Assembly: GCA_041664265.1 (NCBI GenBank)
Contig: JBAYLD010000001.1
Location: 40,051-104,050 of the forward strand
Length of the DNA stretch: 64,000 nt
Reading direction: 5' to 3'
Source: Minisyncoccota bacterium
GTDB lineage: Bacteria > Patescibacteriota > Minisyncoccia > Phycocordibacterales > Phycocordibacteraceae
Shown one piece after another: positions 29 to 24,625 of the stretch; the stretch's first letter is position 1, and each line of letters begins with the position of its first letter. The notes under the pieces are model-generated. The model was not told the DNA's origin. It was given only the letters and a program-made list of their open reading frames with translations, and made no database searches. The translations under genes and the position numbers were made by a program.

Positions 29-916
29 GTGATGCTCACAGAACCCCTCACGATGCCGTCCACGCGTTTGGGAAGGCTGGCATTTGGAGCAATCATCGGC
101 TTCTTGTTCGCTCCGAACATCCACATCGGCTCGTTCTATTTCACACCAGAAATCGCGCTTCTCGTCGGTAATCTCTTCGCCTACTTCGTGAGCCCCGAGG
201 GTCGCTTCACCCTGACGCTGATAGGGAAAAATAAAATCGCCTCGGGCATGTACGATTTTGTGTTCAAGCCCGATTGGCTTTTTAACTTCTATCCGGGGCA
301 ATATCTCGAATGGACGATCCCGCACCGCTCCTCCGATAACCGCGGCAATCGCCGGTACTTCACGATTGCCTCATCGCCAACTGAAGAAGAGGTGCGCCTC
401 GGTGTGAAGTTTTACGAGCCGAAGAGCAGTTTTAAACAAGCACTCGACGGTCTGCAAATAGGTGATACTGTCTCTGTCTCGCAACTCACAGGAGACTTCG
501 TCCTCCCGAAGGATCCTGCACAAAAGCTCGTGTTTATCGCAGGCGGTATCGGCATCACGCCCTTCCGTAGTATGGTGCGCTATCTCGTGGATACAAACGA
601 TACACGTTCGATCGTGTTGCTGTATTCAAATAAATTCTCCTCCGAGATCGCATACAAAGAAACCTTTGACGAAGCTGCACAAAAGATCGGTATGAAAACA
701 GTGTACGTACTCACGGGCGAACCGCATCCTGTGCCCGGGACATACGCGGGGAGAATACATGAAGGGCTGATCGCGAACGAAATTCCTGATTATAAAGAGC
801 GCACGTTCTATATTTCCGGGCCCCCTGCCATGGTTTCAGCAACAGCGCGTGGCCTCCACACCATGGGCGTCTCTCGTTCCCGTATCAAGACCGACTACTT
901 CCCCGGTTTCGCGTAG
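29..916 (+). CDS. FAD/NAD(P)-binding oxidoreductase, ferredoxin-NADP-reductase-like domain. The gene may extend upstream of the window; the membrane part may be missing.
   Basis: FAD motif 'RYFTIASSP' and NAD(P)-binding 'VFIAGGIGITPF'. There is no in-frame stop between the window start and the first Met, and the N-terminus is hydrophobic. Confidence 0.6.
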   Translation: MMLTEPLTMPSTRLGRLAFGAIIGFLFAPNIHIGSFYFTPEIALLVGNLFAYFVSPEGRFTLTLIGKNKIASGMYDFVFKPDWLFNFYPGQYLEWTIPHRSSDNRGNRRYFTIASSPTEEEVRLGVKFYEPKSSFKQALDGLQIGDTVSVSQLTGDFVLPKDPAQKLVFIAGGIGITPFRSMVRYLVDTNDTRSIVLLYSNKFSSEIAYKETFDEAAQKIGMKTVYVLTGEPHPVPGTYAGRIHEGLIANEIPDYKERTFYISGPPAMVSATARGLHTMGVSRSRIKTDYFPGFA

Positions 917-10273: not shown

Positions 10274-10344
10274 TGCGGGTTCGTCTAATGGTAGGACACA
10301 TCCCTCTGGAGGATGGTATTGGGGTTCGAGTCCCTGACCCGCAG
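10274..10344 (+). tRNA. tRNA-Gln (anticodon CUG)
   Basis: Cloverleaf drawn by hand: acceptor TGCGGGT/ACCCGCA, anticodon stem CATCC/GGATG with loop CTCTGGA, T-loop TTCGAGT. No CCA encoded. Confidence 0.65.
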
Positions 10345-11958
10345 CAATCGTGGATTTTCATGTGCGATGACTGCGTAATCCTCTTTCGTTAAGCCGTCGT
10401 TTGTCGGTTCTAACGTCCCTTTTTCTTCCTCAACGGCAGATGACACTTTCGATATGCGCTCAAGCAGAATATCCGCATTAACCCTCAGCATCTTGTCGAT
10501 TACCTCGTGGTTCGAACCTAAATTGGCGAGAATGCTTCTTCGGGCCTTGCGATCATCGGAATCGTCTTTCTCAAAGGCGATCAATGCGCGCTCAGCGAAG
10601 TTGAAACCGCGCTCAGCGACTGCGAGCCAATCCCCGGCTCCATCATCGCTTGCCGCCATTTCAGCTTCCATGCGTTGTTTGTCCGCTTTGAGTGCCGCAG
10701 ACTTCGCGCGGAAGACATCCTCTGGGATCTCATCATTCATTCTCATGTTCACAAGAGCATCCATCCGGCGCACGCAATCAGCGAGGGCCTTCTTCTGGTT
10801 CTCGGATACTGCTTTGGTTTCCTGGCCTTCCTCCTTATCCATTTCGCGCAGTGCATCAAGCGCCCATGCTTTGAACTCGGGAGGAACGCTGTAATCCACA
10901 AGACTGCTCATCACCTGTGCTTCGAGGACTTTCTCTTCGATGGATCCTTGTGTGCAAACATAATCCTTGTGATGGGTACAATGATAGAAGATGTAGGAAC
11001 GCACCTCGCCTGAGGCGAGTTTCTTATACTTCCTCTCTGCTGTGATTGCCGCCCCACACACACCACATCGCATGTGACCACGATACGCGAACTCGTGCGT
11101 CTTCGGACGTGGGCGATCAGCCCTGCCAAGCAGGAACTGTACGCGATCGAATTCATCCTTGGTGACCATCGCAACGTGGTTACCCTTGCACCAATTGCCA
11201 CTCCCTAGAGGAAATTCATACTCGCCGTAATAGAACGGGCGAATGAATGTCAGGTAGACCAGACTGCGAGGGAGCGGTTTGTTGCCGTTGCTCTTTCCTC
11301 CTCTTGCGTGCGCACGAAGGCCCCACTCCTCGCCCGCAATCTTCCAGATTTGCGGCACGGTGTACTTGCCTGTAAGCATGAGGTCCCACATCTTACGCAC
11401 GAGATCGAATCGCTCTGGATCGACTAGGATTCGCTTCTTTCCGCGTTCGGCGAACTTCTCATTTAGATAACCAAGCGGAGCAGAACTTGGATAATCTCCA
11501 TTCCGAGCCTTCATGCTCGTACCGCGCTTCACATCCTGGCCCTTCTTCGCCGATTCATACTGAGACTGCGAGAGCGCCATTTGAAGCATCCATATGCCTG
11601 CTGGATTGTTCTCGAAGTGATAGACACAGAAACGTAATTCCTTCAGGTTACCGTCACGCAGCATATAAGTGATGTTCCCCGCGTCTATTTCGTTTCGTGA
11701 TAGCCGATCCGGTTGCCACGCCAAAAGACCTCGGCGTTCGCCCTTGCTGATGCGTTCCAGCATTTCAGAGAATGCCGGACGGTTGAATGGTTTGAATGCG
11801 CTTCTCTCTTCAACGATAAACTCGACGTCGAATCCAGGGAATGCTTTGAGTACTTGTTCTTTTTGCGCAGGGATTGATATCGCCTGACGTTCTTTATCCT
11901 CGCTGGATTTTCTCAGGTACGCGAAATACCGGATAGCTGCCTCTTTTGTCTTGGTCAT
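10285..11958 (-). CDS. Large serine recombinase (phage-type integrase)
   Basis: N-terminal resolvase domain 'YLRKSSEDKERQ', recombinase domain, zinc ribbon 'CGVCGAAITAE...YHCTHH', coiled-coil. 557 aa. Confidence 0.85.
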   Translation of the reverse strand: MTKTKEAAIRYFAYLRKSSEDKERQAISIPAQKEQVLKAFPGFDVEFIVEERSAFKPFNRPAFSEMLERISKGERRGLLAWQPDRLSRNEIDAGNITYMLRDGNLKELRFCVYHFENNPAGIWMLQMALSQSQYESAKKGQDVKRGTSMKARNGDYPSSAPLGYLNEKFAERGKKRILVDPERFDLVRKMWDLMLTGKYTVPQIWKIAGEEWGLRAHARGGKSNGNKPLPRSLVYLTFIRPFYYGEYEFPLGSGNWCKGNHVAMVTKDEFDRVQFLLGRADRPRPKTHEFAYRGHMRCGVCGAAITAERKYKKLASGEVRSYIFYHCTHHKDYVCTQGSIEEKVLEAQVMSSLVDYSVPPEFKAWALDALREMDKEEGQETKAVSENQKKALADCVRRMDALVNMRMNDEIPEDVFRAKSAALKADKQRMEAEMAASDDGAGDWLAVAERGFNFAERALIAFEKDDSDDRKARRSILANLGSNHEVIDKMLRVNADILLERISKVSSAVEEEKGTLEPTNDGLTKEDYAVIAHENPRLLRVRDSNPNTILQRDVSYH

Positions 11959-11975
11959 ATTGTTTGGTTGATTTG

Positions 11976-12191
11976 TTAATTTGCTAACTGCGAATCGAGT
12001 CGTTTAGTGGGTGTGACTGTCGCGCTTTCAATGTGACGCGCGGATTCTTTGAGAACCACCCCGATAAGAGAGACGAAGCGAATGGCTTTATCGAGAGCCT
12101 CTTGGTCGCTAAGTGTAATCCCATACCGCTTGCTGTAGAGTTGTTTGAACGTGCTAACGCGTTCTGGCGCTAAACGCATGAACGTTTTCAT
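11976..12191 (-). CDS. Hypothetical small protein
   Basis: ORF only. Confidence 0.25.
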   Translation of the reverse strand: MKTFMRLAPERVSTFKQLYSKRYGITLSDQEALDKAIRFVSLIGVVLKESARHIESATVTPTKRLDSQLAN

Positions 12192-12609
12192 TAATCTCTT
12201 CGCTGTTCTGCTTCATCACTGTAGTGAAGTTCATTAACGCTAGGATCTCTTCGGTTGGATCGAAGGACGATAGCTCCTTAATGTCGTCTAAGCGCCAAGA
12301 TCGTCCGATTGCAAATCTCTTTCCTTGCTCCCTTATCCCTCTCCAAGTCCAATACGTTCTCAGGGCCACATCGACGGATACGAGGAGTTTTACTTCGTTT
12401 TTCCGTTTGAATGCAACCTTAATCGCTTCGACTATCGTCGGAACATCTACTTCCCGAAGTACACACAACACTTCAAACTTCTCCTTGTCGCATTGTCTGC
12501 GCAAAAAGGTCTCCTGATCGTCAAGATACTGTTCATCACCATCTGCCCGTACATAGACAAACGCACCAATCCTCCTTTGCTCCGAACCTGACTTTCTCGA
12601 CTTTTTCAT
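12154..12609 (-). CDS. Resolvase N-terminal-domain-like protein with the catalytic Ser replaced by Ala (degenerate small serine recombinase, or a recombination accessory factor)
   Basis: 'IGAFVYVRADGDEQ' aligns with the resolvase 'IGYVRVSTxxQ'. 'KLLVSVDVALRTY' resembles the resolvase 'LVVtklDRLgR' region. Confidence 0.35.
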   Translation of the reverse strand: MKKSRKSGSEQRRIGAFVYVRADGDEQYLDDQETFLRRQCDKEKFEVLCVLREVDVPTIVEAIKVAFKRKNEVKLLVSVDVALRTYWTWRGIREQGKRFAIGRSWRLDDIKELSSFDPTEEILALMNFTTVMKQNSEEINENVHAFSARTR

Positions 12610-13037
12610 AGTCGTATATTTTTTGTGGCGCGAGGGACAAAGGGCATTCGTCGTTCCGAATCCGCGTCTAATAATTCCTACTCCGTCGTACTGGGGTATT
12701 TAAAAACGCCCCCATTCTAATAAGAAAAGTCGTACCAATGTTAGGTATAACTGCTCTTATTAAACTAGGGACGTTACACAAGTCACTGCTCTAAGGAAGC
12801 AGGCTTGGGTGACAAAACGGCCAAATATCACCTTTATCTGAGTGAGATCATTGCTGATCTGATTACTTCATTTGCCACGAGTGTTTTCATCGCTGTTGAT
12901 GATCTCGCTGCGGACCCGAGTAGCCTAGAGGTTCGCATTGTCCGGTCATTTCCGGTAGAGGGCTAGTTATTTCAATGTGCAACGTGTGGGATTGTCCCGC
13001 ACGGAGGTATTCTAGCATCATGTGATTTAAAATAGCA

Positions 13038-13200
13038 ATACGCGACTTACGGCATTTGTGGACACTTGCGATAAGGCCGTCACCCATCTGTTCACACACA
13101 AAGAGAGGTAGAGGGAGGAGTGAGGCGTTGCGAGCTGTTTGTGATCACCCATTCACACATCGCTACCCGTACATAGCCCACAAATAGCGTAAGTCGCGCC
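13038..13200. repeat. About 22-bp imperfect inverted repeats 115 nt apart in a 590-nt non-coding region downstream of the primase gene
   Basis: aatacgcgacttacggcatttgtgg (13038-13061) versus ccacaaatagcgtaagtcgcgcc (13178-13200). Confidence 0.5.
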
Positions 13201-14988
13201 CTATCCTAGTCGTGGCATTTTGCTGATGGCTATATTTCGGTCATTGCCATCGCTGCTAGATACAACGCGTATTCCAGTCTCTTCAAGTGGAGTCTTTAAT
13301 CTGTTGATTTCACGCGTTAGAGCAGACGGACTCGCTGGAAGACGGTTATCCGCGATTTTGTCGTCCATGGCCTGGTCCTTGAATGCCTTAAACAGTTGTC
13401 TCGGGCTGCCTTCCCACATGCCATCGTGCGCATTGACGATGGCAACAAGGATAGTGGCAACGGTATTGTCGTTGATTAGTTCCTCGCTCTGACTGTTTAT
13501 GTTGTGGAAGTACGCGGCAAGGAACGCTTCTTGGCCGATTCCCAGTGCTTCGGCGACTGCGCAACCCCACAATGCAAAATCTGCCATTCGTGGAAGCTCG
13601 TCCACCTTGATGTTAGGTTTTAAGGCCATCGCTTTCGCAACAGTGTCGTAAATTGCTCCGAGGATGCGAGGTCTAGCAACCTCGAAGTCAGCCATTAGAT
13701 CGTACTCCTGTCTGCGGTTGCTTTTGTCCATGCGTTCGAGCTTGAGCAGGAGGCTTCGTTCGAGCAGGTCCGCGCGGTTGGATGCGACGTTTATGCCGTT
13801 TATGCCTATGCTAGCCATGACGTAGCGGATCACGTCGTCATCGTTCGTGTACAGCTCGCGCTTGCTGAACCCTCCGCCGGTTATTGCCCGGCAGAGAAGA
13901 TCAGAAATCCAGTCAGGCATCTCCGATACGTTGTCGAAGAAGAGAAAGGCGTGATGGCCGAGCTGCTGGGCCAGGTCTCCCTCGTGGCGAGTCAGACTCA
14001 CGACCTCGATCTTGGAAGGGTCGATGAGCTTGCGCACGATGCGACTGAGCGTGGACTTCGCAGATCCCTGAGAACCGTACACATAGAGTGCTGGATGAGG
14101 CCAACCTGGAATATATGAAGCGACTAAATGCACGAGGAAGAGTGTTTGCTGTTCTGGATCGGTGATATTCACGAATTTCAGGACATCCCGCACCGATCCT
14201 CCCCGCACTGGTTCTACTTGCGGGGCAAGGTGCGAAAAGCGGCGAAAGAGCATCGGGACATCTGTCACAATGCTCCACCCCTCTTGTGTTATTCGAACCG
14301 CACGCCACTTCTTGTCGGCGAGGTCGTACCACACGGCTTCAGGTGTCTGAGCTATGCGATTAAAGAGTCGGTGTTCCTCGCACTCGTTGATGGCGCGGCC
14401 TTCGAGCAGACTAACGGCGTCTTTCATGCTCTCTCTGCCGGCTACGGTCTTTCCGCGCGTTAGGCGGTAGAATTCGCCACCGAGCCAGCGAGTGAGTGCG
14501 CCACTCCTGCAGGGCCAAACTTCCGAATGATCTTCAACAGGAATCCTAATATGAGCGACGTCATACTCGTCCTTAAACAAAGTGACGTTTGGGTTCTCCA
14601 GGATCATATTTACGAGTCGCGTAGACTGCGATGGTCCTTTTCCACCTTCACCGCTGTTCGCTTCTGCTAACTGAGCGAGTTTCTCGCGATTTCTCTCATG
14701 AGCAATCGATTCAATTAACGCATCAAACGTTTCGCGCAGATATTCATCATTAGGATACGGGAGTTTAGCCGTGGTATTCCATAACTGGACCTTCGGCCAT
14801 AATGCATCTACCGACTGTTTGTCTTCGGCTTCAATTCCTTTCATCAACCCATGCACGTATTCGTCAAAGAGATCTAGGCGCTCGAATTCTGGAATACGAA
14901 CTCCTTCGGGGACATCGGAAAAATGATAGAACGGATCGAACTTTTCATTTGGATTTAAAGTGCCGTTAGAGGCGATAATGTCTTTCAT
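13201..14988 (-). CDS. Phage/plasmid primase-helicase-like P-loop NTPase (P4/D5/VirE-family C-terminal domain)
   Basis: Walker A 'VYGSQGSAKSTL'. About 600 aa, with a domain order reminiscent of the D5_N plus primase-C/SF3 helicase type. On an integrative element. Confidence 0.5.
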   Translation of the reverse strand: MKDIIASNGTLNPNEKFDPFYHFSDVPEGVRIPEFERLDLFDEYVHGLMKGIEAEDKQSVDALWPKVQLWNTTAKLPYPNDEYLRETFDALIESIAHERNREKLAQLAEANSGEGGKGPSQSTRLVNMILENPNVTLFKDEYDVAHIRIPVEDHSEVWPCRSGALTRWLGGEFYRLTRGKTVAGRESMKDAVSLLEGRAINECEEHRLFNRIAQTPEAVWYDLADKKWRAVRITQEGWSIVTDVPMLFRRFSHLAPQVEPVRGGSVRDVLKFVNITDPEQQTLFLVHLVASYIPGWPHPALYVYGSQGSAKSTLSRIVRKLIDPSKIEVVSLTRHEGDLAQQLGHHAFLFFDNVSEMPDWISDLLCRAITGGGFSKRELYTNDDDVIRYVMASIGINGINVASNRADLLERSLLLKLERMDKSNRRQEYDLMADFEVARPRILGAIYDTVAKAMALKPNIKVDELPRMADFALWGCAVAEALGIGQEAFLAAYFHNINSQSEELINDNTVATILVAIVNAHDGMWEGSPRQLFKAFKDQAMDDKIADNRLPASPSALTREINRLKTPLEETGIRVVSSSDGNDRNIAISKMPRLG

Positions 14989-15244
14989 GATTAACAGTAA
15001 AATTAATAAAACCCGTAGAGGGATAGTGGCGGCGTGTCGATTGGAATACGAGACTTTCCGCTACCCCTCTTCGGGCTCTATGAACACTACTGTGCGCCGG
15101 GTTAGTCTCGTATTCCATAGAAGTCACTATGCCAGAGTACGCAAATTGGCTTGTGTCAATCTCTGGCCGCTATGCATCCGATGTTGAGGCAAAATACGTT
15201 TATGCCGCCGAAAAGCCATTACTCTAGATACAACTAACGTACCT

Positions 15245-15272
15245 TTAGTACCTTCACGCCACGTGGTAAAAT
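15245..15272 (+). promoter_or_regulatory. Candidate sigma70-type promoter (TTAGTA-16-TGgTAAAAT, extended -10) for the Cys-rich secreted protein operon
   Basis: -35 at 15245-15250 and extended -10 at 15264-15272 put the TSS near 15280, about 205 nt upstream of the ATG at 15488. Confidence 0.3.
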
Positions 15273-15282
15273 TGCTATGTGC

Positions 15283-15487
15283 GACAACAAAGGGCTAAAC
15301 GCAGGAGGAATCCCGCGCATGCCCGGAATAACAAAGTCTCGTCGAGAGTACTGAACCCCACGTTCAGCGTCTCTCGACGAGCCGTACTCCGAAAGGATGT
15401 TACGAGACCGCAAGGTCTGCTGGCGTGGGGTTCAGTGCTGTCATATGACTCCGCGCCGGTAATTACCAACATGACCGCCGGAGTCGT
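15283..15487 (+). promoter_or_regulatory. About 200-nt structured 5' leader with mutually exclusive helices (riboswitch/attenuator-like), ending in a hairpin that covers the SD of the downstream gene
   Basis: Helix 15334-15347/15367-15380. Segment 15350-15360 can pair either locally (15361-15366) or distally (15423-15434). The terminal helix 15446-15484 overlaps GGAG at 15479-15482. Confidence 0.35.
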
Positions 15488-16237
15488 ATGAAATATAAAC
15501 ACATCATCGCGGGCGTATTTGGATTATTCCTCCTCTTTCCTTTCCATCATGCCTCCGCCAGCCTTCTTTGGTGTGATCCACTGTTAGGAGGCTGTAGCAA
15601 TCCATTCAGTGGAGTGGATCAGAGCATTCAGCAACAGCAATCACAGGCCCAAGCACAACAACAGTCGTGGCAACGAATACAAGACAAAGAGAGCGCACTA
15701 AAGTCGCAGTATGGCTATGCTGCATACACGTCCTGCACAGCTAATATGCTACATATCGACGGTGGAGACATTGCTCAAGTCACAATGTATCTCAATGCGG
15801 ATGAGCCGTGCATGGCGAGCTACAAATCGAAACAAGAACAAGCGGCAAGCACGCAATGCACATCACTGGGAAACGGTCGCTATAGTGGCAATTGCACATG
15901 CGGTGCTGGATACACGTTTAAAAATAACGTATGCACGCCAATCACCTGTGATGCGGGCTACATTTTAAGGGATAGCACCTGTGTATTAGGAACTCAGTTC
16001 TGCACCAGTAAATTTGGCTCCAACAGCGTATTTAACGGCAAGCTGTGCGACTGCGCATCCGGGTACAAGTTTAATGAATTCTTTGACTCGAGAGCACAGT
16101 GCGTAGCAGTCACTCCGGCTAAGACAACCGGCTCTCATCTTGCGGCTAATCAAATCGCCGCGATCCTCTCGCTGTTGCAGTCCTTCGGTGCCGATGCAAA
16201 AACAATCGCTAGTGTAAAAGCTGCGCTCGGGCAATAA
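15488..16237 (+). CDS. Secreted cysteine-rich protein with repeated C-x-C-x2-GY-x(n)-C modules and a Gln-rich linker
   Basis: Signal peptide 'MKYKHIIAGVFGLFLLFPFHHASA'. Modules 'CTCGAGYTFKNNVCTPITCDAGYILRDSTCV' and 'CDCASGYKFNE'. Confidence 0.55.
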   Translation: MKYKHIIAGVFGLFLLFPFHHASASLLWCDPLLGGCSNPFSGVDQSIQQQQSQAQAQQQSWQRIQDKESALKSQYGYAAYTSCTANMLHIDGGDIAQVTMYLNADEPCMASYKSKQEQAASTQCTSLGNGRYSGNCTCGAGYTFKNNVCTPITCDAGYILRDSTCVLGTQFCTSKFGSNSVFNGKLCDCASGYKFNEFFDSRAQCVAVTPAKTTGSHLAANQIAAILSLLQSFGADAKTIASVKAALGQ

Positions 16238-16247
16238 TCATCGTGGC

Positions 16248-16607
16248 ATGCCGTACAAAAGCACTAAGCACGCATTCGTATGGATCGGTGGGTTAATAAT
16301 CATCGCGACGACAGCGTACGGAGCATCAAGGCTCTACGCGCCTAAGCCGCCAATATCAGAGGAACAATCAGCGGGTCAGCGAGTTTGCGATAAGATCAAC
16401 GACCTCATGGCGAAGACTGGCGGCACGATAGACCCTTCACTCACTGTTGCCGTCTGCATCGAGGCGAATAAAGACTGTGAGAATCGTTTGGGACCCCACT
16501 CTATATGGGCAGGAGCTGCTGATGTGAACAATGTCCCACATTGCGACTGCGACGATGGGTATCACTGGGCTACTGATGGTTCAGGAAAATGTGTTGCGTG
16601 GCAGTAA
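16248..16607 (+). CDS. Membrane-anchored or secreted cysteine-rich protein, paralogous module to the preceding gene
   Basis: N-terminal TM/signal segment. 'CDCDDGYHWATDGSGKCVAWQ' is the same CxCxxGY module. Confidence 0.5.
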   Translation: MPYKSTKHAFVWIGGLIIIATTAYGASRLYAPKPPISEEQSAGQRVCDKINDLMAKTGGTIDPSLTVAVCIEANKDCENRLGPHSIWAGAADVNNVPHCDCDDGYHWATDGSGKCVAWQ

Positions 16608-16617
16608 CGATGACGCT

Positions 16618-16884
16618 ATGAAATCACGTAAAAATCGCACAAAGGACATTGCCGTTACATACGAATATATCGAACCAAAAACGGAGGAAGAGAAAAGAGA
16701 GGCCGAGCGAAGACTGGTGCAGACCTACGACATTATCTTCGCCGCCATGCGTCGTAAAATAAAGAGGGAGATGGAAGGAGACATAACGCTAATTCCAGAA
16801 AGGAGGCTCAAAATGTACAAGTGGTTCGTCTATTGGTTTGATGCAACACAGCAAAATAGGGCCGCCGGTAGGACGACCCTATAA
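16618..16884 (+). CDS. Hypothetical charged small protein
   Basis: ORF downstream of the Cys-rich genes. The start at the internal Met 16618 avoids overlap with the upstream gene. Confidence 0.25.
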   Translation: MKSRKNRTKDIAVTYEYIEPKTEEEKREAERRLVQTYDIIFAAMRRKIKREMEGDITLIPERRLKMYKWFVYWFDATQQNRAAGRTTL

Positions 16885-17081
16885 TGCTACTGCCTAGATC
16901 TCATCATCTGCGAGCCCGAATCTTTCCTCCTCGCCAAGCACGTTGTCTAGCACCAAGACATCGCGGAAGATGTGGTCCTCCGGTTCGGCAGCCTCTTCGT
17001 AATGCTTCTTCTCGTCTCGGTACAGGTAATTAACGATGCGGGTGAGAGCTTTGTGTTCAGATAGGTACATACCTATATCAG

Positions 17082-17591
17082 TTAGTCCCACCAGAAGCGG
17101 AACTCCTCTCGGGCGACCTCGAACGGCATCCCCGGTTGTGGAGGGGACACGGTAACTATCTCGCTCCACTCCCGACCATTGAAGCGTTTCTGCGTCTCGT
17201 TCTCTATCTCGAGCTCATACGACACCTCGTCAGCCTTTGCGACACGCGCGAACTGCTCTATTGCCTGTACGTCTCCTTCACTTAATGGAGAATCTCCGGT
17301 ATGTAGGTAGCGACGTATATACAGCACGGGGGAACCTTCGCGCCCGACCTCCAGCGTGTAGGTTCGTTTGCCGTTGTTAGGGTTAGGATGCCCGCTCACA
17401 TCAGCGAACTTGGCACGAGGGATAATGCGGTCTATCTCTAACAGCATCTCGCCGACATCCGAGCCTATAAGCTCATTGTACCCGCCAAGCGTACGCAGGA
17501 ACTCGATAGCGACTGGTAGAGGCACCTCTGCTCTCATACGCAGCGTGTCCTCAAAGACTGACAACAGGGCGTAGGTAGAGGCACGACTCAT
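17082..17591 (-). CDS. Hypothetical protein (island cargo)
   Basis: ORF only. Same strand as the flanking small ORFs at 16894-17169 and 17588-17779 (possible 3-gene operon). Confidence 0.3.
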   Translation of the reverse strand: MSRASTYALLSVFEDTLRMRAEVPLPVAIEFLRTLGGYNELIGSDVGEMLLEIDRIIPRAKFADVSGHPNPNNGKRTYTLEVGREGSPVLYIRRYLHTGDSPLSEGDVQAIEQFARVAKADEVSYELEIENETQKRFNGREWSEIVTVSPPQPGMPFEVAREEFRFWWD

Positions 17592-17779
17592 ACTTCGACT
17601 GGGAACATCTTCCGTCTTGCATTCGTTAAGGCTTCGTCCCTTGTCTCTCCGAAGCCAAGCACAGCACCGGTTGTCTTGCTCACCACGCGATACCCAATGA
17701 GCGTGCCGTCTCCCATATCGTCCTCATCTCCCCAAACAGCACCGTGTCCGAAGACCGGTTCAATTGTCATAGTTTGCAT
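17588..17779 (-). CDS. Hypothetical small protein
   Basis: ORF only. 4-nt overlap with the downstream ORF. Confidence 0.25.
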   Translation of the reverse strand: MQTMTIEPVFGHGAVWGDEDDMGDGTLIGYRVVSKTTGAVLGFGETRDEALTNARRKMFPVEV

Positions 17780-18109
17780 TCGTTCTAACTAATAAGCGAA
17801 CACTCGCCGAGTCGTGAGGGGGGCGGGGCTGTGGTTCCACTTCGACTACCTCTACTTTCGTTTGGTGCCATACAGTACTAAACCTGCGCGGAGGGCGGAC
17901 AAAATCTCCATCGTTTTAGAAACGACAAGCCATTCTGAAAACGCAAGCCTGAAAAAAATTCCGCGCCATTTTCTGGATACTTTGCTGTCCATGCGGCATG
18001 CATAATTGCGTTATCCCCAACTAGGCAAACACTATTTCGCGGCTCAGATAAGCCGCGGATTGGGAAACTCTCCCGATTTCAATATCTTGCGGTCCAAACA
18101 GCGTGTACA

Positions 18110-19165
18110 ATGCAAAATATGCAGACTCTACAAAAACCAATAGTCAGAGTCGCGCCCGCCATTAAGATAAAACGGGAAGAGACAAAGAAGAGCAAACCGC
18201 TTCGTATCGTCTCGCTTTTTTCCGGATCTGGAGGGATGGACCTAGGATTCCAACAGGAAGGATTTGAACTCGCATGGGCGAACGATGTGAACCATTGGGC
18301 TTGCGAGACCTTCAGGAAGAACTTTGGCGACCACATCGCAGAAGGCAGCATTGTCGACATCGAAAATAAAAAGATACCGAGCTGCGACGTTGTGCTTGGA
18401 GGATTTCCTTGTCAGGACTTTTCAATGCTGTGGAAGCGCATGGGGCTTAAAACGGACCGCGGGAATCTCTATCGGCAATTCGTGCGCGTTGTCCTCGACA
18501 AGAAGCCGAAGCTATTCGTTGCCGAGAATGTGAAAGGCATCATGAGCGCCAATGGAGGCAAGGCCGTGGAACAGATAAAAAAGGACTTCGAGAAAGTCGG
18601 CTATAGCGTAAGCGTCAATCAGATCAACTTTGCCAATTACGGAGCACCGCAGCTGCGCGAGCGCGTGTTGATTGTAGGCGTGCGCAAGGATCTTAAGAAG
18701 GAATTCAAGCTGCCCGCCCCGACGCACTCTCCAGGCAACTATGTTACTGCCAAGGAGGCCTTAAAAGGCGTCCAGCGGGTGCCCTTTAACAATGAACATC
18801 AGAACATTGCTCCTTCAACCATTGCGAAATTGAGGATCATACCTCCAGGCGGAAACTTCACAGACATTCCGAAGAGTTCCCCTCACTACGTGAAAGGCAT
18901 GATATCCCACGTTTATCGGCGTTTGCATCCGGACAAACCTTCGACTACCATCATCGCAGGCGGCGGTGGCGGCACATGGGGTTACCACTATGAAGAGCTG
19001 CGCCCTCTCACAAACAGAGAGCGCGCCCGCTTGTTTGGCTATCCCGACGACTTTGTCTTTGTTGGATCGATAACAGAGGTCAGGCGGCAGATTGGAAACT
19101 CTGTGCCCCCTGCCGGGATTAGGCCTATTGCTAAAGCAATAAAACAATTTTTAGATGAACTATAA
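18110..19165 (+). CDS. DNA cytosine-5 methyltransferase (Type II R-M methyltransferase)
   Basis: Motif I 'LFSGSGGMDLGF', motif IV 'GGFPCQDFS', motif VI 'ENVKG', motif X 'QIGNSVPP'. Confidence 0.9.
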   Translation: MQNMQTLQKPIVRVAPAIKIKREETKKSKPLRIVSLFSGSGGMDLGFQQEGFELAWANDVNHWACETFRKNFGDHIAEGSIVDIENKKIPSCDVVLGGFPCQDFSMLWKRMGLKTDRGNLYRQFVRVVLDKKPKLFVAENVKGIMSANGGKAVEQIKKDFEKVGYSVSVNQINFANYGAPQLRERVLIVGVRKDLKKEFKLPAPTHSPGNYVTAKEALKGVQRVPFNNEHQNIAPSTIAKLRIIPPGGNFTDIPKSSPHYVKGMISHVYRRLHPDKPSTTIIAGGGGGTWGYHYEELRPLTNRERARLFGYPDDFVFVGSITEVRRQIGNSVPPAGIRPIAKAIKQFLDEL

Positions 19166-19176
19166 AATCAGATTGC

Positions 19177-20229
19177 ATGGAGCTCCTGTACTCGAACATC
19201 AAACCGTGCGAGTCTGATAACTCGTCGTTTAGCGAAGCCTTTGAGGCCGGCGTTGTAAAGTCTGACAGCATAAAGATCGCGACAGGCTACATAACAGAAG
19301 AGTCTCTTTTGGAATTGAAATCGATTCTGTCGTTTTATTTTGACGAGGGAAAAATCAAGAAGTGCAGCCTGGTGCTTGGCATGCACGGCAGAGAGGGTTT
19401 TACTCAGGCGCAATACGAAGCTGCAATAAATCTAGCTATGCTCCTTAAGGAAAGGGACATCGGCGCAGTATACGTTTGCACCGCCTTTAAATTCCACGGC
19501 AAGACCTATGTGTTTTATAAAGCCGATGAGCCTGTCTCTGCTGTGATGGGATCGTCGAACTTGAGCAATATCGTCGACAGCCGCGTATGGGAAGTCGACG
19601 CTCTTTTTACCGAGGCGAAGATCCTCTCGGAACTCGATGCGCTGCACTCCAGTCTGGTTGACAAGGCTTGCCACAACATTCTCGAAATGGAAAAGCCTTC
19701 CACGTTTAACCACGCGAGAGACTTGCTGAAGGACAGGATAGGAGTCACTAAAGCTGACCCCGAGACATACCGCGAAGCTGAAAACTCCGTAACTGATAAG
19801 GTCTTCGACTTGCCGCTGAAACCGGAAGCAAAAAGCAACTTGAACGCTTACTTCGGCAAAGGCAGAATGTCCAAGGCAACCGGGGCAATTCGTCCCCGCC
19901 ATTGGTATGAAGTCGAATTGATTGTTCCGATAGAGATAACATCCTCGCCGTCATATCCGAAAAACGGGTCCGTCTTCCACGTCTTCACCGACGACGGGTG
20001 GTCCTTTAACTGTAAAGTCGAAGGACAGAACGGAAAGAACTTTAGATCGGAGAATGACCTGAGGACTCTGGGCCGATGGATAAAGGGGCGGCTGGAAAAT
20101 TCCGGCTGCCTCAAAGTCGGGCAGCCAGTGACCGAGGAAGTTCTGAAAAACTACGGGCGCCGCACGCTGTCTCTCAAGCAGACAACTAAACCGGATGTGT
20201 GGCTGTTGGATTTCTCAAACAAAGCATGA
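19177..20229 (+). CDS. PLD-family restriction endonuclease (R.CglI/R.NgoAVII-like: N-terminal HKD nuclease plus C-terminal DNA-binding domain)
   Basis: HKD-like motif 'HGKTYVFYKADEPVSAVMGSSNLS' (H-x-K ... GS-x-N). About 350 aa. Immediately after the m5C methyltransferase and translationally coupled to the next gene. Confidence 0.55.
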   Translation: MELLYSNIKPCESDNSSFSEAFEAGVVKSDSIKIATGYITEESLLELKSILSFYFDEGKIKKCSLVLGMHGREGFTQAQYEAAINLAMLLKERDIGAVYVCTAFKFHGKTYVFYKADEPVSAVMGSSNLSNIVDSRVWEVDALFTEAKILSELDALHSSLVDKACHNILEMEKPSTFNHARDLLKDRIGVTKADPETYREAENSVTDKVFDLPLKPEAKSNLNAYFGKGRMSKATGAIRPRHWYEVELIVPIEITSSPSYPKNGSVFHVFTDDGWSFNCKVEGQNGKNFRSENDLRTLGRWIKGRLENSGCLKVGQPVTEEVLKNYGRRTLSLKQTTKPDVWLLDFSNKA

Positions 20230-22109
20230 CCTTCCTAGAAAACTACCTGCAGCGAGTTGAAGCCGACAAGCCCGGCCTCGCGCTAGCTTTGAAGAAGAGC
20301 GCGGAGGAATTTGCGAGTCTCCACATCGACAGCTTTGACTTCAATAGCCATAAGTCGGGACTGCTCTACGGACATGTGCAGAGCGGCAAGACGGGACAAA
20401 TGCTTGCAATCGCGGCAGCCGCGGCGGATCGCGGGTTCAAGTTTTTCATATTATTCACGACCGACAATGTAATACTGCACAAGCAGACCCTTGAACGCGC
20501 GCAGCAGTATCTCGGCGGATTTATGGCGGGCTTCAATGTGCTCGGCGAGATGGACGAGGAGGCATTCTTGACCCGCAGCTTGGCGATGCCCACGATGCTC
20601 GTGCTCAAAAAGAATACGAGCGTTCTCAAGACCTGGTGCAACAACATTGAAAGCAATAAAACCTACAAAGACGAACCTCTGTTCCTCTTGGATGACGAGG
20701 CAGATGCGTCGAGCCTCAATACAAAAGTAAATCAGAATGACCAGAGCACAATAAACCAACTGCTCGAAAGAATCGACGGGCAAGCCCCATCAAGCATGTA
20801 CCTCCATGTAACAGCTACGCCACAATCGCTCGTCCTCCAGGTATCTAATTCCATGTGGAAACCGGAGTTCTCCTTCTACCTGCCACCCGGGGAGTCGTAT
20901 CTCGGCGGGGACTTTTTCTACGGCGAGAATTCACAAAGCCTCGTTATGACAGAAGACAACGAGCGCGATGATTTATTGAAGGCGGAACACGTTCCTGTCG
21001 GCCTGCGCGAGGCCGTGCTGCACTTCCTCGTTGCCGCTTCGGAGTTGTTCCTTACGAAAGAGAAACCGGTATGCACACTGCTAATCCATCCTGGAGCAAA
21101 AATCAGCGAACACGCGACCGTAAGAACGAAAATAGAAAAGTTCCTCGAAGGAGTAAAAAGCGACCTGATAGCAAACTCATCGACTCTCGAATTCGCCATC
21201 CGGGACGCATGGGAGGAACTTAAGAAAACGAAACCGGACATTCACAGCTTCGAAGAGATACTCGGGTTCCTCAGAACGCGGATGCCGAATGTGAACATCA
21301 TCGTCCTGAACTCGAAAACTCCAGTTGGTTCTGTGTATGACAAGGGTCTTAATATCGTCATCGGAGGCAATACTCTCGGCCGAGGAGTCACTTTCCCAGG
21401 CCTGCAGGTGGTCTACTACTGCCGAAGCGCAAAAACACCGCAGGCTGACACCTCGTGGCAGCACGCGCGCATATTCGGCTATGACCGGGAACCTGGGTTG
21501 TGCAGGATCTTCAGCCCCCGCCCACTAATGAAGCTGTTCCAGGAGTTGAATGACGCAAACAATGCTCTGTTTGAAACGTTGAGGATTAAGGGTCCGCAAG
21601 CAGTAAGCATTCTTACGCCGGCAGGGGCGCGTCCAACCAGAACAAATGTGGTTTCTCGGGAAGACCTAATCGTTATTTCAGGAGGAGTAAACTACTTCCC
21701 GCTGCTTCCAACCGCGGCAAGCATTAAGAGCTTAGATGCCGAACTTGGCTCTGCGGATGATGAGCGCGAAATTACACTCGCAGAGGCTGAAAAGATTTTG
21801 AGGCTTGTAAGCGTGGAGAAAGAAGACTTGTGGAATCAACACTCGTTCCCTGATTGCGTTGAGACTCTAAAGAAGAGCAAAAAGTATTCCTGCCGACTCA
21901 TAGTTCGGACCAATAGAAGTATTGGCAAAGGAACGCGAACACTCCTCTCTGAGAACGATCGAGAACTCGGCAGCAGATACGTCGATCAGATTGTCCTCTC
22001 TATGTACCGCCTGAACGGAGAAGCAAGCAAGGGATGGGAAGATAGGCCTCTATGGGTGCCGAACATAAAGTTCCCCGATGGTACTTATTTCCACTACCAA
22101 TTAAAATAA
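20226..22109 (+). CDS. Helicase-like ATPase with C-terminal Z1-type domain (H/N subunit of a CglI/NgoAVII-type ATP-dependent restriction system)
   Basis: Walker A 'GHVQSGKTGQM', DEAD-box 'FLLDDEADAS'. ATGA start/stop overlap with the R gene. About 627 aa, the size of H.CglI. Confidence 0.55.
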   Translation: MTFLENYLQRVEADKPGLALALKKSAEEFASLHIDSFDFNSHKSGLLYGHVQSGKTGQMLAIAAAAADRGFKFFILFTTDNVILHKQTLERAQQYLGGFMAGFNVLGEMDEEAFLTRSLAMPTMLVLKKNTSVLKTWCNNIESNKTYKDEPLFLLDDEADASSLNTKVNQNDQSTINQLLERIDGQAPSSMYLHVTATPQSLVLQVSNSMWKPEFSFYLPPGESYLGGDFFYGENSQSLVMTEDNERDDLLKAEHVPVGLREAVLHFLVAASELFLTKEKPVCTLLIHPGAKISEHATVRTKIEKFLEGVKSDLIANSSTLEFAIRDAWEELKKTKPDIHSFEEILGFLRTRMPNVNIIVLNSKTPVGSVYDKGLNIVIGGNTLGRGVTFPGLQVVYYCRSAKTPQADTSWQHARIFGYDREPGLCRIFSPRPLMKLFQELNDANNALFETLRIKGPQAVSILTPAGARPTRTNVVSREDLIVISGGVNYFPLLPTAASIKSLDAELGSADDEREITLAEAEKILRLVSVEKEDLWNQHSFPDCVETLKKSKKYSCRLIVRTNRSIGKGTRTLLSENDRELGSRYVDQIVLSMYRLNGEASKGWEDRPLWVPNIKFPDGTYFHYQLK

Positions 22110-22218
22110 CATTATGACCAAACAGGAGAGGGATTAAAGGAGGAAACGAGTAAGGGCGAATGAGTTGGGCTCGCGGTTTTTATGGCAAATGATAGGCTTT
22201 TCATGAAAACCTCCTTAT

Positions 22219-24501
22219 ATGGCGATAGAGAAAATCATTTCCATAGAGAACATAGGGCGCTTACGGGCATATAAGGCTCGGGGCGACCTCTCTTTCAAGC
22301 GCTATAACCTCGTCTTTGCTGAGAATGGGCGTGGCAAGTCGACCTTGAGCGCAATACTCCGCTCGATGCGAGACGGAGACGACTCCCATATCAAAGCGAG
22401 GTACTCAGTAGGAGCGACTGCCCCCGCGAAAGTTGACGTGCGAATAAATGGTTTGAACGTCAAATACGACGGCAAGTCGTGGGACACAACTGTACCGAAC
22501 CTCGCAATTTTTGACGCTCTATTCACGAGTGAGAATGTACATTCTGGTGACTCAGTCGGAACGAGCCATCGTCGCAACCTATTGCAGATCATGCTCGGTG
22601 CGCAAGGTGTTAACCTTGCAAAGAAGGTTGGTGAACTTGATGAGCAGATTCGGAATGCAAATACGAGTATCACCGAGCGCAAGCGTGCGATCGCTAGGTA
22701 TCTAGAACCTCATGCCGATGTTGACGACTTCGTGCGTCGTCCGGTTGTGGGTGGCATCGCTACACAGATAAAAAATAAGAAGGCTGCACTAGAAGCTGCG
22801 CGCCAAGCAGGTGAGATACAGACACGCACGTCTATCGAAACCATTCCGTTGCCGTCACTGCCTGAGAAGTTCGACGAACTCCTTGATCGGGGCTTGAAGC
22901 AAGTATCTACTGATGCGGAGAAGAAGGTTCGTGAGCAAATAGAACATCACCACATGGGTGAGGATGGTGAGGAGTGGCTTTCACAGGGGCTTGCATACGT
23001 CGTGGACGACAAGTGTCCTTTCTGTGGCTCTGCTATAGCGAGGGGCGACCAAGTGAAGCTATACAAGGAATATTTCAGTGATGCTTACGACACGCACAGG
23101 TCCGCGATTTCCGATGCTCGTAGTGTAGTCATCGGATCTCTCGGCGATACTGCTCGTGCTCGGTTCGTAAGCGGAAAAATAGAACGCAACAAGACTGCCA
23201 TGGAGTTCTGGAAGGCGTATGTGCCAGGTCCTTTCCCCGTATTCAAGGACGAGGGTGTGGTTATAGAGGCACTTGAGGGCGTGTATACGGAAGGTCTGCG
23301 ACTCATAGATAAAAAACTTGGGGCACCGCTCGATACTGTCAATCCCGATAAGCCGTACAAAGATGCGGTAGCGAAGTATGAGACCGTGCGAGCGATGTTC
23401 GATGCATATAACGAGGTGGCAAATAATGCAGACAAAAGCATCGCAGAAGTAAAGCGTACGAGTCGTTCCGCAGACCCACGAACTATACAAGCTGAACTCA
23501 AGGACCTTGAACTGACCGAGCGTCGGCACGCCGATCCAGTGAAGACCTTGTGCGAAGAATACGTTGCCGAAGTTGTGGCAAAGAAGACCCTCGACACACA
23601 GAAGGATACTGCGAAAGATGCTCTTGATGCATATGCCGAAACGGCGCTCAATGGATACCAAGAGGAAATCAATCGGTTGCTATCTCAGTTCGGAACAGGC
23701 TTCACCATTCATAGTACGGTGCGCAGCTATGTTGGTGGTGCACCAACTTCGTCCTACCAACTCATGATTGATAGCTGCCTCATTGATTTGGGTGACGATA
23801 ACACAACAGGCAAGCCCTGCTTCAAGACCTCTATGAGTTCAGGAGACAAGAGTGCACTCGCGCTTGCTTTCTTCCTTGCTCATCTCGACAAAGATGCATC
23901 CAGGTCGCAGAAGATAGTCGTCTTCGACGACCCGTTCACCAGCTTTGACCGTTCGCGTCGTGAGCAGACCGTGCAGTTGATAAAGAAGTTTGGGGAGTCA
24001 TGCGCGCAAGTTGTCGTACTCTCTCATGATCCCTCGTTCTTGAAGCTTCTCTCTGACCGTCTAGACAAGGCAGATACGAGACAGATGCAGATTTCGCGAG
24101 CAGGAGTTAACTCCACTCTCGAAGACTGGGATGCAGACAAGGAAAACCAAGGTCTCTACTTCAAGGATCGCGATGATCTACGAGCCTACATTGATGGCAC
24201 TTCGACCACAGCACTTCAGGATGTGGCGAGAAAGATACGTCCGGTGCTCGAAGGATACATGCGAATTCGCTTCGCAGGAGGATTCCCCGACAACATGTGG
24301 CTAGGCGACATGATCGGGCATGTGCGCACGGCAGGAGCAACGCACCCGCTGTTTCCGGAACTCCAAAATCTATCGGAAATAAACGATTACTCGAAACGCT
24401 ACCACCACGAGACGAACCCAAACTGGAACGCGGAACCCATCTCCGACGGTGAGCTCAAAACGTTCGTGAACAGGACTCTCTTCCTGGTAGGAGGGTACTA
24501 G
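22219..24501 (+). CDS. RloC-like ABC-type ATPase with zinc hook (candidate restriction-linked anticodon nuclease)
   Basis: N-terminal Walker A 'ENGRGKSTL', CxxC hook 'CPFCGS' within predicted coiled coils, ABC signature/D-loop 'SSGDKSALALAF...IVVFDDPFTSFD', about 150-aa C-terminal extension. Located right after the R-M genes. Confidence 0.45.
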   Translation: MAIEKIISIENIGRLRAYKARGDLSFKRYNLVFAENGRGKSTLSAILRSMRDGDDSHIKARYSVGATAPAKVDVRINGLNVKYDGKSWDTTVPNLAIFDALFTSENVHSGDSVGTSHRRNLLQIMLGAQGVNLAKKVGELDEQIRNANTSITERKRAIARYLEPHADVDDFVRRPVVGGIATQIKNKKAALEAARQAGEIQTRTSIETIPLPSLPEKFDELLDRGLKQVSTDAEKKVREQIEHHHMGEDGEEWLSQGLAYVVDDKCPFCGSAIARGDQVKLYKEYFSDAYDTHRSAISDARSVVIGSLGDTARARFVSGKIERNKTAMEFWKAYVPGPFPVFKDEGVVIEALEGVYTEGLRLIDKKLGAPLDTVNPDKPYKDAVAKYETVRAMFDAYNEVANNADKSIAEVKRTSRSADPRTIQAELKDLELTERRHADPVKTLCEEYVAEVVAKKTLDTQKDTAKDALDAYAETALNGYQEEINRLLSQFGTGFTIHSTVRSYVGGAPTSSYQLMIDSCLIDLGDDNTTGKPCFKTSMSSGDKSALALAFFLAHLDKDASRSQKIVVFDDPFTSFDRSRREQTVQLIKKFGESCAQVVVLSHDPSFLKLLSDRLDKADTRQMQISRAGVNSTLEDWDADKENQGLYFKDRDDLRAYIDGTSTTALQDVARKIRPVLEGYMRIRFAGGFPDNMWLGDMIGHVRTAGATHPLFPELQNLSEINDYSKRYHHETNPNWNAEPISDGELKTFVNRTLFLVGGY

Positions 24502-24625
24502 GAGTTTAACCAATAGTACTCTCACCACGCCACCTTCGCAGTCCGAAACACCGTATCCTTGCTCCTCGCGGCGGTTCTAACGTCCTTTAGGCACTGCAGC
24601 TCTTCGTCGCTCTGTAATTTTTTTG

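Follow-up and report, generated by a model that had tools for sequence, protein, structure and literature searches.

A LOOT RNA in an integrative element of a Minisyncoccota bacterium: a probable cis-acting leader with a proposed partner-exchanging 3' tail

We have examined a structured intergenic region near position 15,300 of a 64,000-nucleotide (nt) stretch of contig JBAYLD010000001.1 from a Minisyncoccota bacterium; this entire stretch is called the window below, and all positions are counted from its first base. Positions 15292-15418 (+) encode a LOOT RNA, which is a genuine new member of Rfam family RF03000, and the segment immediately 3' of the Rfam match, the tail, forms with the apex of the second LOOT hairpin a fifth, covariation-supported helix that is missing from the Rfam model. 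The most likely verdict is that this LOOT copy is a cis-acting leader switch. Stated in full, the interpretation that we favor, and regard as probable, is that the RNA is the 5' leader, with its own promoter, of the cargo operon in an integrative element of the candidate phyla radiation (CPR), and that it operates as a four-strand attenuator in which the tail is the pivot.

The assignment to LOOT is based on a cmscan score of 56.4 bits, compared with a gathering score of 46.4, over positions 1-121 of the 121 in the model (E = 6e-8 for the 64-kb window). In the Rfam scan of the whole window this was the single match above threshold other than tRNAs, and a permissive scan of the region returned no other credible family and no riboswitch family. 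The match has the four hairpins of the family, namely P1 with its internal loop, a long P2, P3 and P4, with compensatory substitutions, as well as the GNRA tetraloops on P1, P3 and P4 and the CUAAAC/GCAUG internal loop. The first-pass annotation of this DNA, which had suggested a covariance-model scan of what it took for a riboswitch- or attenuator-like leader, had not recognized the family. Within LOOT the window copy is a divergent, low-scoring subtype; its apex reads ACUGAACCCC, it has no U tract, and it scores 56 bits versus 70-99 for most relatives. The motif comes from the Weinberg/Breaker survey of intergenic regions (PMC5737381). The Rfam 14 paper (PMC7779021) shows it as a "metagenomic-based RNA", and its structure was changed in Rfam 15 (PMC11701678) by the adjustment of 2 covarying pairs. 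In the literature consulted it is treated solely as a metagenome-derived motif, without a function. The conserved tail helix, a conserved 5' leader motif and the downstream expression platform fall outside the 121-position model, and the CPR host, the genomic setting and the cis-regulatory reading are, as far as this literature shows, likewise absent from the family description.

The positions of the helices and of the neighboring features are collected in Table 1. A 218-nt stretch containing them folds at -96.2 kcal/mol, compared with -62.4 +/- 4.8 kcal/mol for dinucleotide shuffles (z = -7.1), and 0 of 200 shuffles equaled it. The first-pass annotation had described a long interrupted helix at 15334-15347/15367-15380, which is present as the perfect base of P2, its coordinates displaced by 1-5 nt, and a perfect downstream complement to the apical segment, which is also present, one base higher than had been given: CTGAACCCCACG lies at 15351-15362 and CGTGGGGTTCAG at 15424-15435. 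By our own arithmetic a perfect 12-nt complement inside 200 nt has a chance expectation of about 0.001. The pairing of 15424-15437 with 15349-15362 comprises 14 base pairs (bp) with a core energy of -25.1 kcal/mol, or -33.3 when extended to 15442/15344, and the complementarity as a whole reaches 19 nt at 89% (15344-15362/15424-15442). The final helix, proposed at 15446-15484 to occlude the GGAG Shine-Dalgarno (SD) sequence, was found at 15441-15453/15479-15491 (13 nt at 92%, -24.7 to -25.5 kcal/mol; arms CAUAUGACUCCG/CGGAGUCGUAUG), where it buries the ATG as well as the GGAG. In addition, the tail has an alternative partner that the first-pass annotation had not described, since 15419-15432 can pair with 15447-15460 (14 bp, -27 kcal/mol, z of about -4), within the 5' arm of this final hairpin. 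This alternative helix shares nucleotides with both the apex:tail helix and the final hairpin, and it is mutually exclusive with them.

Table 1. Features of the LOOT region and of the surrounding element (window coordinates).
Feature	Position	Strand	Details and basis
Putative promoter	15244-15272	+	-35-like TTTAGT 15244-15249, 17-nt spacer, extended -10 TGGTAAAAT 15264-15272; read from sequence
Conserved 5' leader motif	15284-15290	+	ACAACAA, just before P1; alignment, on this motif, of the sequences preceding 35 LOOT copies
P1	15292-15295/15321-15324 and 15300-15306/15311-15317	+	Loop GGAA 15307-15310; RF03000 match
P1 internal loop	15295-15300 and 15317-15321	+	CUAAAC and GCAUG; RF03000 match
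P2 base	15338-15348/15371-15381	+	11 bp, perfect
P2 apex hairpin	15351-15356/15362-15367	+	RF03000 match
P3	15383-15390/15395-15404	+	Loop GAAA 15391-15394
P4	15405-15409/15414-15418	+	Loop GCAA 15410-15413
Strand 1	15349-15362	+	5' half and loop of P2 apex, partner of tail; inverted repeat; alignment columns 78-91
Strand 2	15419-15437	+	3' tail, outside Rfam model; long-range helix covariation, duplex energies
Strand 3	15441-15460	+	5' arm of SD/AUG hairpin, also complementary to tail; inverted repeat, RNAduplex, RNAfold
Strand 4	15473-15491	+	3' arm of hairpin with SD GGAG 15480-15483 and ATG 15488-15490; inverted repeat, folds
First gene of LOOT-led operon	15488-16237	+	249-amino-acid Cys-rich protein with signal peptide; open reading frame list, gene call in source contigs
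tRNA-Gln	10274-10345		
Large serine recombinase	10285-11958	-	
Divergent rep gene	13201-14988	-	595 amino acids, helicase part of PrimPol-helicase proteins; 2250 homologues
NgoFVII-type restriction-modification pair	18110-20229		C5-methylase/endonuclease
Z1/helicase protein	20199-22109		
AAA_13 ATPase	22219-24501		

To obtain homologous loci we anchored on the rep gene, which is divergent from LOOT in the window: an alignment of 30 rep homologues led to 80 genome and 80 metagenome loci (designated below by L numbers), and the contigs of seven individual rep homologues were added. Covariance models of our own, extended to include the 3' tail, yielded 35 distinct LOOT copies with the default filters of Infernal, and three further copies (L091, L192 and L194) were found with the filters off; we count 37 LOOT copies besides that of the window. 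The results on pairing that follow were obtained from 35 sequences. The nested helices P1-P4 are paired in 94.6% of alignment cells, compared with 65.5% after shuffling; the five nested helices taken singly are 87.5-98.5% paired, with two-sided changes in 33 of 35 pairs. RNAalifold, run on 8 sequences, also supports P1-P3, and the GNRA tetraloops are invariant across the alignment. A search of related genomes for homologous leaders and for compensatory base changes had been suggested at first pass; both were found, the leaders in front of open reading frames (ORFs).

In every homologue the 5' strand and loop of the P2 apex find their complement in the segment 3' of P4, even as the sequences themselves differ. 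Thus the apex and tail strands are AACCCAUCA and UGUGGUGGG in the common type, AAGCUCCUAGUCAG and CUGGCUAGGAGCUU in L167, GCCCCAUAAU and AUUGUGGGGC in L066, and CGCUGAACCUCCAUA and UAUGGAGGUUCAGCG in L091, which together with L194 provides further independent variants. The 14 pairs of this helix are 91% paired and 9 of them show two-sided changes; one column pair, for instance, is A-U in 15 sequences, C-G in 8 and G-C in 7, and another is A-U in 18 and G-C in 10. None of 500 shuffles reached the observed pairing or covariation score, and when the partner was slid by 1-3 columns the pairing fell to 28-55%. These columns were modeled as unpaired, and the alignment was therefore not fitted to the helix. 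The complementarity between apex and downstream segment is thus a genuine, conserved and covarying helix. Its mean duplex energy is -27.5 kcal/mol (z = -5.7), compared with -5.4 (z = -2.3) for the local apex hairpin; in the window the corresponding values are -38.4 and -6.2. Because the duplex is so much stronger than the local hairpin, the apex:tail helix should win once the tail has been made. This qualifies the notion of competing helices put forward in the first-pass annotation. The local apex hairpin is weak (-6 versus -25 to -38 kcal/mol) and its competition with the tail may be a mere folding intermediate; on the other hand, the tail does have the additional alternative described above, in strand 3. 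If the base of P2 is kept while the apex pairs with the tail, the result would be a pseudoknot, provided that both helices fit sterically.

These patterns bear on two explanations in which LOOT would not be an RNA at all. The region lies between divergent genes, one of them a replication gene, and copies of a P2 arm recur nearby in some loci, as might be expected of an operator, an origin or a recombination site built of inverted repeats. However, the pairs include strand-specific G-U combinations (U-G in 22 of 32 and 25 of 35 sequences at positions of the tail helix, G-U in 14 in P3), which would be A.C mismatches on the opposite strand, and the stems covary with free sequence, as is expected of RNA and not of an operator. 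The abundance of G-U pairs on this strand, together with the invariance of the GNRA loops, argues for RNA, and a DNA-level element is very improbable. More improbable still, to the point of being scarcely credible, is that the hairpins are chance products of G+C-rich sequence or that one of the two overlapping ORFs, 15279-15491 (+) and 15275-15502 (-), is a real gene. Both do exist in the mechanical ORF list. Against this stand the folding z-score, the match to a curated covariance model and the covariation; moreover, no ORF of at least 50 amino acids spans LOOT in L088 or L091, and no gene is called over the LOOT region in three source records. Both ORFs are artefacts, as had been suspected at first pass: they are not kept in the closest relatives, and the region is a structured RNA leader and not a gene.

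Several additional properties of the fold may be mentioned here. The 11-nt receptor for GAAA tetraloops has the sequence CCUAAG...UAUGG (PMC11381326). The internal loop of LOOT P1 (CCUAA[A/C]C...G[C/U]AUGG among the relatives, GCUAAAC...GCAUGC for the window copy) resembles this receptor without being identical to the canonical sequence, and P3 carries an invariant GAAA loop, so that docking of the P3 loop into P1 is plausible. It was also observed that the P1 loop region AGGAGGAAT (15303-15311) is perfectly complementary to ATTCCTCCT (15526-15534), 38 nt inside the 249-amino-acid ORF, which may be due to chance. A 10-nt match of the P2 5' strand to 15048-15057 was dropped, as we estimate that about 0.2 such matches would be expected by chance.

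The position of LOOT in front of an ORF is constant. An ORF of at least 45 codons on the same strand follows 34 of 34 distinct LOOTs, and in 32 of these it starts between +2 and +47 nt past the tail. This arrangement supports the reading of LOOT as a leader. At the other end of the RNA, most of the 35 homologues have an extended -10 element (TGnTAnnnT) some 7-12 nt upstream of a conserved leader that begins with ACAA, and between this element and P1 about 30 homologous loci carry the motif ACAAC[T/A]NAATA, for which no pairing partner was found among 35 LOOT loci and which probably represents the first transcribed bases. The plausible promoter proposed at first pass fares less uniformly. It was not detected by a simple scan for the sigma-70 consensus; an extended -10 is conserved at the same position in relatives, and it is solely by virtue of this conservation that we retain a putative promoter for the window copy.

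In the window the first gene of the operon headed by LOOT encodes a Cys-rich protein with a signal peptide, and homologous first genes with a WCDPLLGGC motif follow LOOT in L087, L088 and L091. Cys-rich signal-peptide proteins are encoded downstream of LOOT in the window, L088, L091, L087 and L192, with a (W)CDPLLG motif in 4 of the 5. In a wider group (window 15488-16607, L010, L026, L114 and L133) the first genes are often secreted and Cys-rich with repeated CxCxxGY-like motifs, and several of these proteins end in WY(E/Q)W/KxLNWF; Pfam offers only a sub-threshold match to cEGF. Homology between the Cys-rich proteins of the window and of L010 was considered and rejected, as the similarity is not significant (E = 0.097) and is limited to a shared CxCxxGY-type motif. 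A mini-ORF of five codons, AUG ACU CCG CGC CGG UAA, was noted at 15445-15462, exactly within strand 3. It is kept only in the near-identical L088 and is absent from L192 and L091; it probably has no function, and a leader-peptide mechanism was rejected for this reason.

It was of interest to compare what follows the conserved domain in different loci, because the expression platforms are of several kinds. In 26 of 35 copies CUUUUUG stands directly after the G+C-rich part of the apex:tail helix, with a conserved A.C mismatch at the base of the stem and an A-rich strand opposite the U tract. In these copies the apex:tail helix looks like an intrinsic terminator whose 5' arm is located 70 nt upstream, in the P2 apex. 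In the window subtype the helix is lengthened by Watson-Crick pairs in place of the U tract and a second hairpin is present downstream. This second hairpin covers the SD and AUG in the window and in L088, L091, L087 and L192, as had been proposed for the window, and it recurs with other sequences: its arms are AUACCACUC/GAGUGGUAU in L192, where a G:C pair of the window has been swapped to C:G, and CUACUGG/CCAGUGG in L091, and in both L091 and L087 they are wholly different from those of the window. In L029 and L159 the second hairpin is instead a canonical terminator that ends 2 nt before the ATG. A terminator-like stem with a U tract is thus found in 26 of 35 relatives, and a separate terminator hairpin in L029 and L159; neither is found in the window.

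In these same seven loci (the window, L088, L091, L087, L192, L029 and L159) the tail is complementary not only to the apex but also to the 5' arm of the downstream hairpin. This second pairing has energies from -17 to -27 kcal/mol, is equaled by no more than 0-1.6% of shuffles, and involves different sequences in different loci. Joint folding of tail and spacer abolishes the SD hairpin (in the clade of the window) or the terminator hairpin (in L029 and L159). More generally, among loci with spacers of at least 24 nt, complementarity of the tail to the spacer is found at a shuffle fraction of at most 0.033 in 12 of 24. Alignment by MAFFT of tail plus spacer from four loci of the window clade put the helices out of register, and therefore helices 2:3 and 3:4 were followed by per-sequence folds and hand-checked pairings, with no pair counts. 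A third type of platform is seen in L031, L066, L095, L098 and L111, in which the P2 base has its 5' strand repeated directly, over 10-15 nt, in a copy that stops 1-3 nt short of an ATG. The copies lie 14-40 nt after the LOOT tail and have a different sequence in each locus; in L066 and L095 the downstream gene encodes an N6 DNA methylase. Because a copy of the P2 5' strand precedes the ATG, the P2 3' strand is complementary to the ribosome-binding region and could swap onto it. A general complementarity of LOOT to ribosome-binding regions is unsupported, as an all-against-all RNAduplex matrix was noisy and showed nothing beyond the five loci with exact repeats.

The platforms also allow us to weigh the idea that LOOT is a free-standing, trans-acting small RNA (sRNA), for which the apex:tail helix would be the mature fold plus terminator, the downstream hairpin an unrelated feature of a 5' untranslated region, and the next gene expressed by read-through or from its own promoter. 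RF03000 is typed "Gene; sRNA" in Rfam, a stem with a U tract ends 26 of the 35 copies as in an sRNA terminator, L029 and L159 have a canonical terminator right behind the tail, and the tail helix is thermodynamically dominant and may be constitutive. We nevertheless consider an sRNA unlikely. The same-strand ORF follows in all 34 loci and, because it begins within 2-47 nt in 32 of them, there is no room for a separate promoter. Furthermore, the window subtype lacks any terminator, and the complementarity of tail to spacer and the copies of a P2 strand at ribosome-binding sites (RBSs) link the RNA to the adjacent message.

How might a cis-acting leader of this kind work? In the model that we propose, LOOT would have a promoter of its own and form the 5' leader on the transcript of the accessory genes that the integrative element carries as an operon, and the tail, strand 2, would pivot among the four strands listed in Table 1. 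In state A the tail would pair with the apex (1:2), leaving 15441-15460 free to fold onto 15473-15491 (3:4); this hairpin would bury the GGAG and AUG of the first cargo gene and translation would be off. In state B the apex would be unavailable, the tail would pair with 15447-15460 (2:3) and the local apex hairpin would be kept, so that the RBS would be exposed and translation would be on. In most relatives the apex:tail helix and the adjoining U tract would act instead as a split intrinsic terminator. The choice of state would be modulated by some trigger, which might be a ligand, a protein or folding kinetics. The comparisons described above show the family membership, the helices, their covariation and the constant place ahead of an ORF; the action in cis, the identification of state A with "off" and the existence of a trigger are inferred.

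In silico, a nested approximation of state A is the minimum-energy fold (the -96.2 kcal/mol given above), compared with -88.2 kcal/mol when state B is forced and -81.6 for the LOOT fold with a free tail. Folding of successive prefixes suggests that the structure may flip as the window RNA grows: the fold is A-like for a prefix ending at 15440, B at 15460, where tail:strand-3 is the minimum-energy structure, and A again at 15495. This pattern fits a kinetic or factor-dependent switch. The window thus has, on the level of computed folds, what is expected of a translational attenuator, namely a hairpin over SD and AUG and a helix that would release it, and L091, L087 and L192 have the same with other sequences.

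Two known classes of RNA are instructive for comparison. The first is the classical four-strand attenuator, exemplified by trp-type transcription attenuation and erm-type translational attenuation. LOOT appears to share the 1:2 / 2:3 / 3:4 logic of these systems, with helix 3:4 serving as a terminator in L029 and L159 or as an SD hairpin in the window, L088, L091 and L192. It differs from them in that it has no conserved leader peptide and in that the role of strand 1 falls to the apex of a large RNA that folds independently, and not to part of a leader ORF. The second class comprises riboswitches with long-range or pseudoknot contacts between sensor and platform, such as the regulatory kissing loop of cobalamin riboswitches and the pseudoknots of SAM-II and preQ1 riboswitches. 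Like these, LOOT combines a compact domain resembling a sensor, in which a tetraloop-receptor contact is probable, with a 3' strand whose pairing to a loop of that domain would set a terminator or RBS helix, and several expression platforms are found behind the one conserved domain. Unlike these, it has no known ligand or coherent regulon, and it offers few conserved unpaired nucleotides that might form a pocket. A structured sensor and mutually exclusive helices were found, both in silico, with a platform that varies between loci; a function shared by the downstream genes was not found, since the products of the first genes range from Cys-rich secreted proteins and small membrane proteins to N6 DNA methylases, an integrase and others. 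Thus, of the riboswitch- or attenuator-like leader described at first pass, the structured leader, the recurring SD/AUG hairpin and the four-strand layout stand, and the comparative evidence strengthens the attenuator reading. The word riboswitch lacks a ligand to go with it, and because there is no evidence for a ligand and the downstream genes are heterogeneous, it stays hypothetical.

A number of observations weigh against the switch that we favor. First, the computed stability of the off state exceeds that of the on state by 8-15 kcal/mol, and the on state may never be populated in the absence of a factor or a kinetic trap. Second, helices 2:3 and 3:4 are derived from about seven loci, several of them closely related, and from nearest-neighbor energies, and the P2 base may not be able to coexist with the 14-bp apex:tail helix. 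Third, the window copy has no U tract (the longest T run after the tail is 2) and no terminator-like site at 15283-15500, and in some U-tract loci the spacer partner of the tail lies 3' of the U tract, where it cannot serve as a classical antiterminator. Fourth, the downstream genes, which encode Cys-rich secreted proteins, membrane proteins, N6 DNA methylases and an integrase, suggest no ligand. Finally, the promoter of the window copy is a prediction, Rfam types the family as noted above, and no experimental work on LOOT was found in the literature consulted.

Another explanation is that LOOT is a constitutive structural leader that does not switch: it might stabilize the 5' end, mark a site of processing, serve as a dock for a protein encoded by the element, or be a processive-antitermination RNA for the long cargo operon. 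Such a role would suit an RNA that is promoter-proximal in a mobile element and upstream of terminator-like structures, with a compact fold in which three loops are of the GNRA type and the CUAAAC/GCAUG internal loop is receptor-like, and that in L140, L121, L149 and L159 heads a string of genes that includes rep. This explanation, however, leaves unaccounted for the complementarity of the tail to two partners, by different sequences in several loci; in addition, no conserved candidate protein partner adjoins LOOT and no similarity to any Rfam antitermination family is apparent. We judge a constitutive leader to be somewhat less likely even than an sRNA, and the cis-acting switch is retained as the preferred interpretation.

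With the Rfam model, 7 of the first 16 genome loci proved to contain LOOT, in each case upstream of rep and on the opposite strand. In total LOOT was found upstream of rep in 15 of 80 genome loci, as a partial match at a contig end in L084, and in 20 metagenome loci. The L091 copy (733-886, minus strand) was missed by both of our own models at default filters and scored 38.4 bits with the filters off; because of this the counts of rep loci without LOOT are upper bounds. L090 and L009 showed no LOOT even with the filters off. The label of every genome record that bears LOOT is either that of a CPR lineage or an unclassified "bacterium", and at default filters no LOOT was found in about 40 rep loci from other phyla. 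Two IUPAC pattern scans of the viral contigs of IMG/VR gave 3 and 19 matches, none of which was LOOT by the Rfam model or our own, so that LOOT is either absent there in the form searched for or the patterns were too narrow. Phage and plasmid collections, searched by blastn with the 218-nt region, contained no match. In L140, L121, L149 and L159 LOOT lies on the same strand as rep and heads a tight string of 2-4 small genes that runs into it, and in some elements LOOT may therefore control replication functions.

In the window LOOT sits between the rep gene and the cargo operon of an element of about 14 kb (10274-24600) that is integrated at tRNA-Gln. Besides the proteins listed in Table 1 the element encodes Cys-rich secreted proteins, and housekeeping genes resume from about 24.9 kb. 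The ends of the element may be marked by a 17-nt direct repeat, CGGTTCTAACGTCC[C/T]TT, whose copies are at 10405 and 24572. Many of the 2250 homologues of rep are 750-800 amino acids long, contain Prim-Pol and PriCT_1 domains (PF09250/PF08708) and are named "bifunctional DNA primase/polymerase"; the rep protein of the window and its closest relatives are without the N-terminal PrimPol domain. The named homologues come from Parcubacteria, Minisyncoccia and other CPR genomes, and the same layout is seen in close relatives, whose integrase is of the tyrosine or serine type and is accompanied by an HTH_17 protein. The leader of rep itself (14994-15093, minus strand) contains a long hairpin (the 150-nt fold has -52.8 kcal/mol, z = -4.5) whose end is some 8 nt away from the rep ATG and which overlaps a run rich in U. 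A blastn comparison shows the region to be conserved in L087, L090 and L091, of which L090 has no LOOT, and it may be a second regulatory structure.

Extended to the family, these considerations lead to a proposal that we advance tentatively and with less assurance than the one made for the window: LOOT would be an orphan cis-regulatory switch, and not an sRNA gene, specific to integrative mobile elements of CPR bacteria, in which a pseudoknotted tail toggles between apex and expression platform. The switch would respond to a metabolite, to a protein of the element or to conditions in the host, and would thereby control the cargo operon and, in some elements, the replication operon.

Since 2017 LOOT has been an orphan, well folded and known solely from metagenomes, to which the literature consulted assigns no host, context or function. 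The present analysis gives it a host and a setting, in integrative elements of Patescibacteria that carry a PrimPol-helicase gene and an integrase. Beyond the database entry it adds a covarying tail helix and several alternative expression platforms that point to cis-regulation, and for annotation it removes two spurious ORFs. It also supplies a testable mechanism, in which the tail would exchange partners and so determine the fate of a terminator or RBS hairpin, and it names the strands to be mutated and restored. If the switch is real, LOOT would join the very small number of regulatory RNAs reported from CPR bacteria and the mobile elements that they carry, and it would be a candidate for a new class of riboswitch or of protein-responsive leader.

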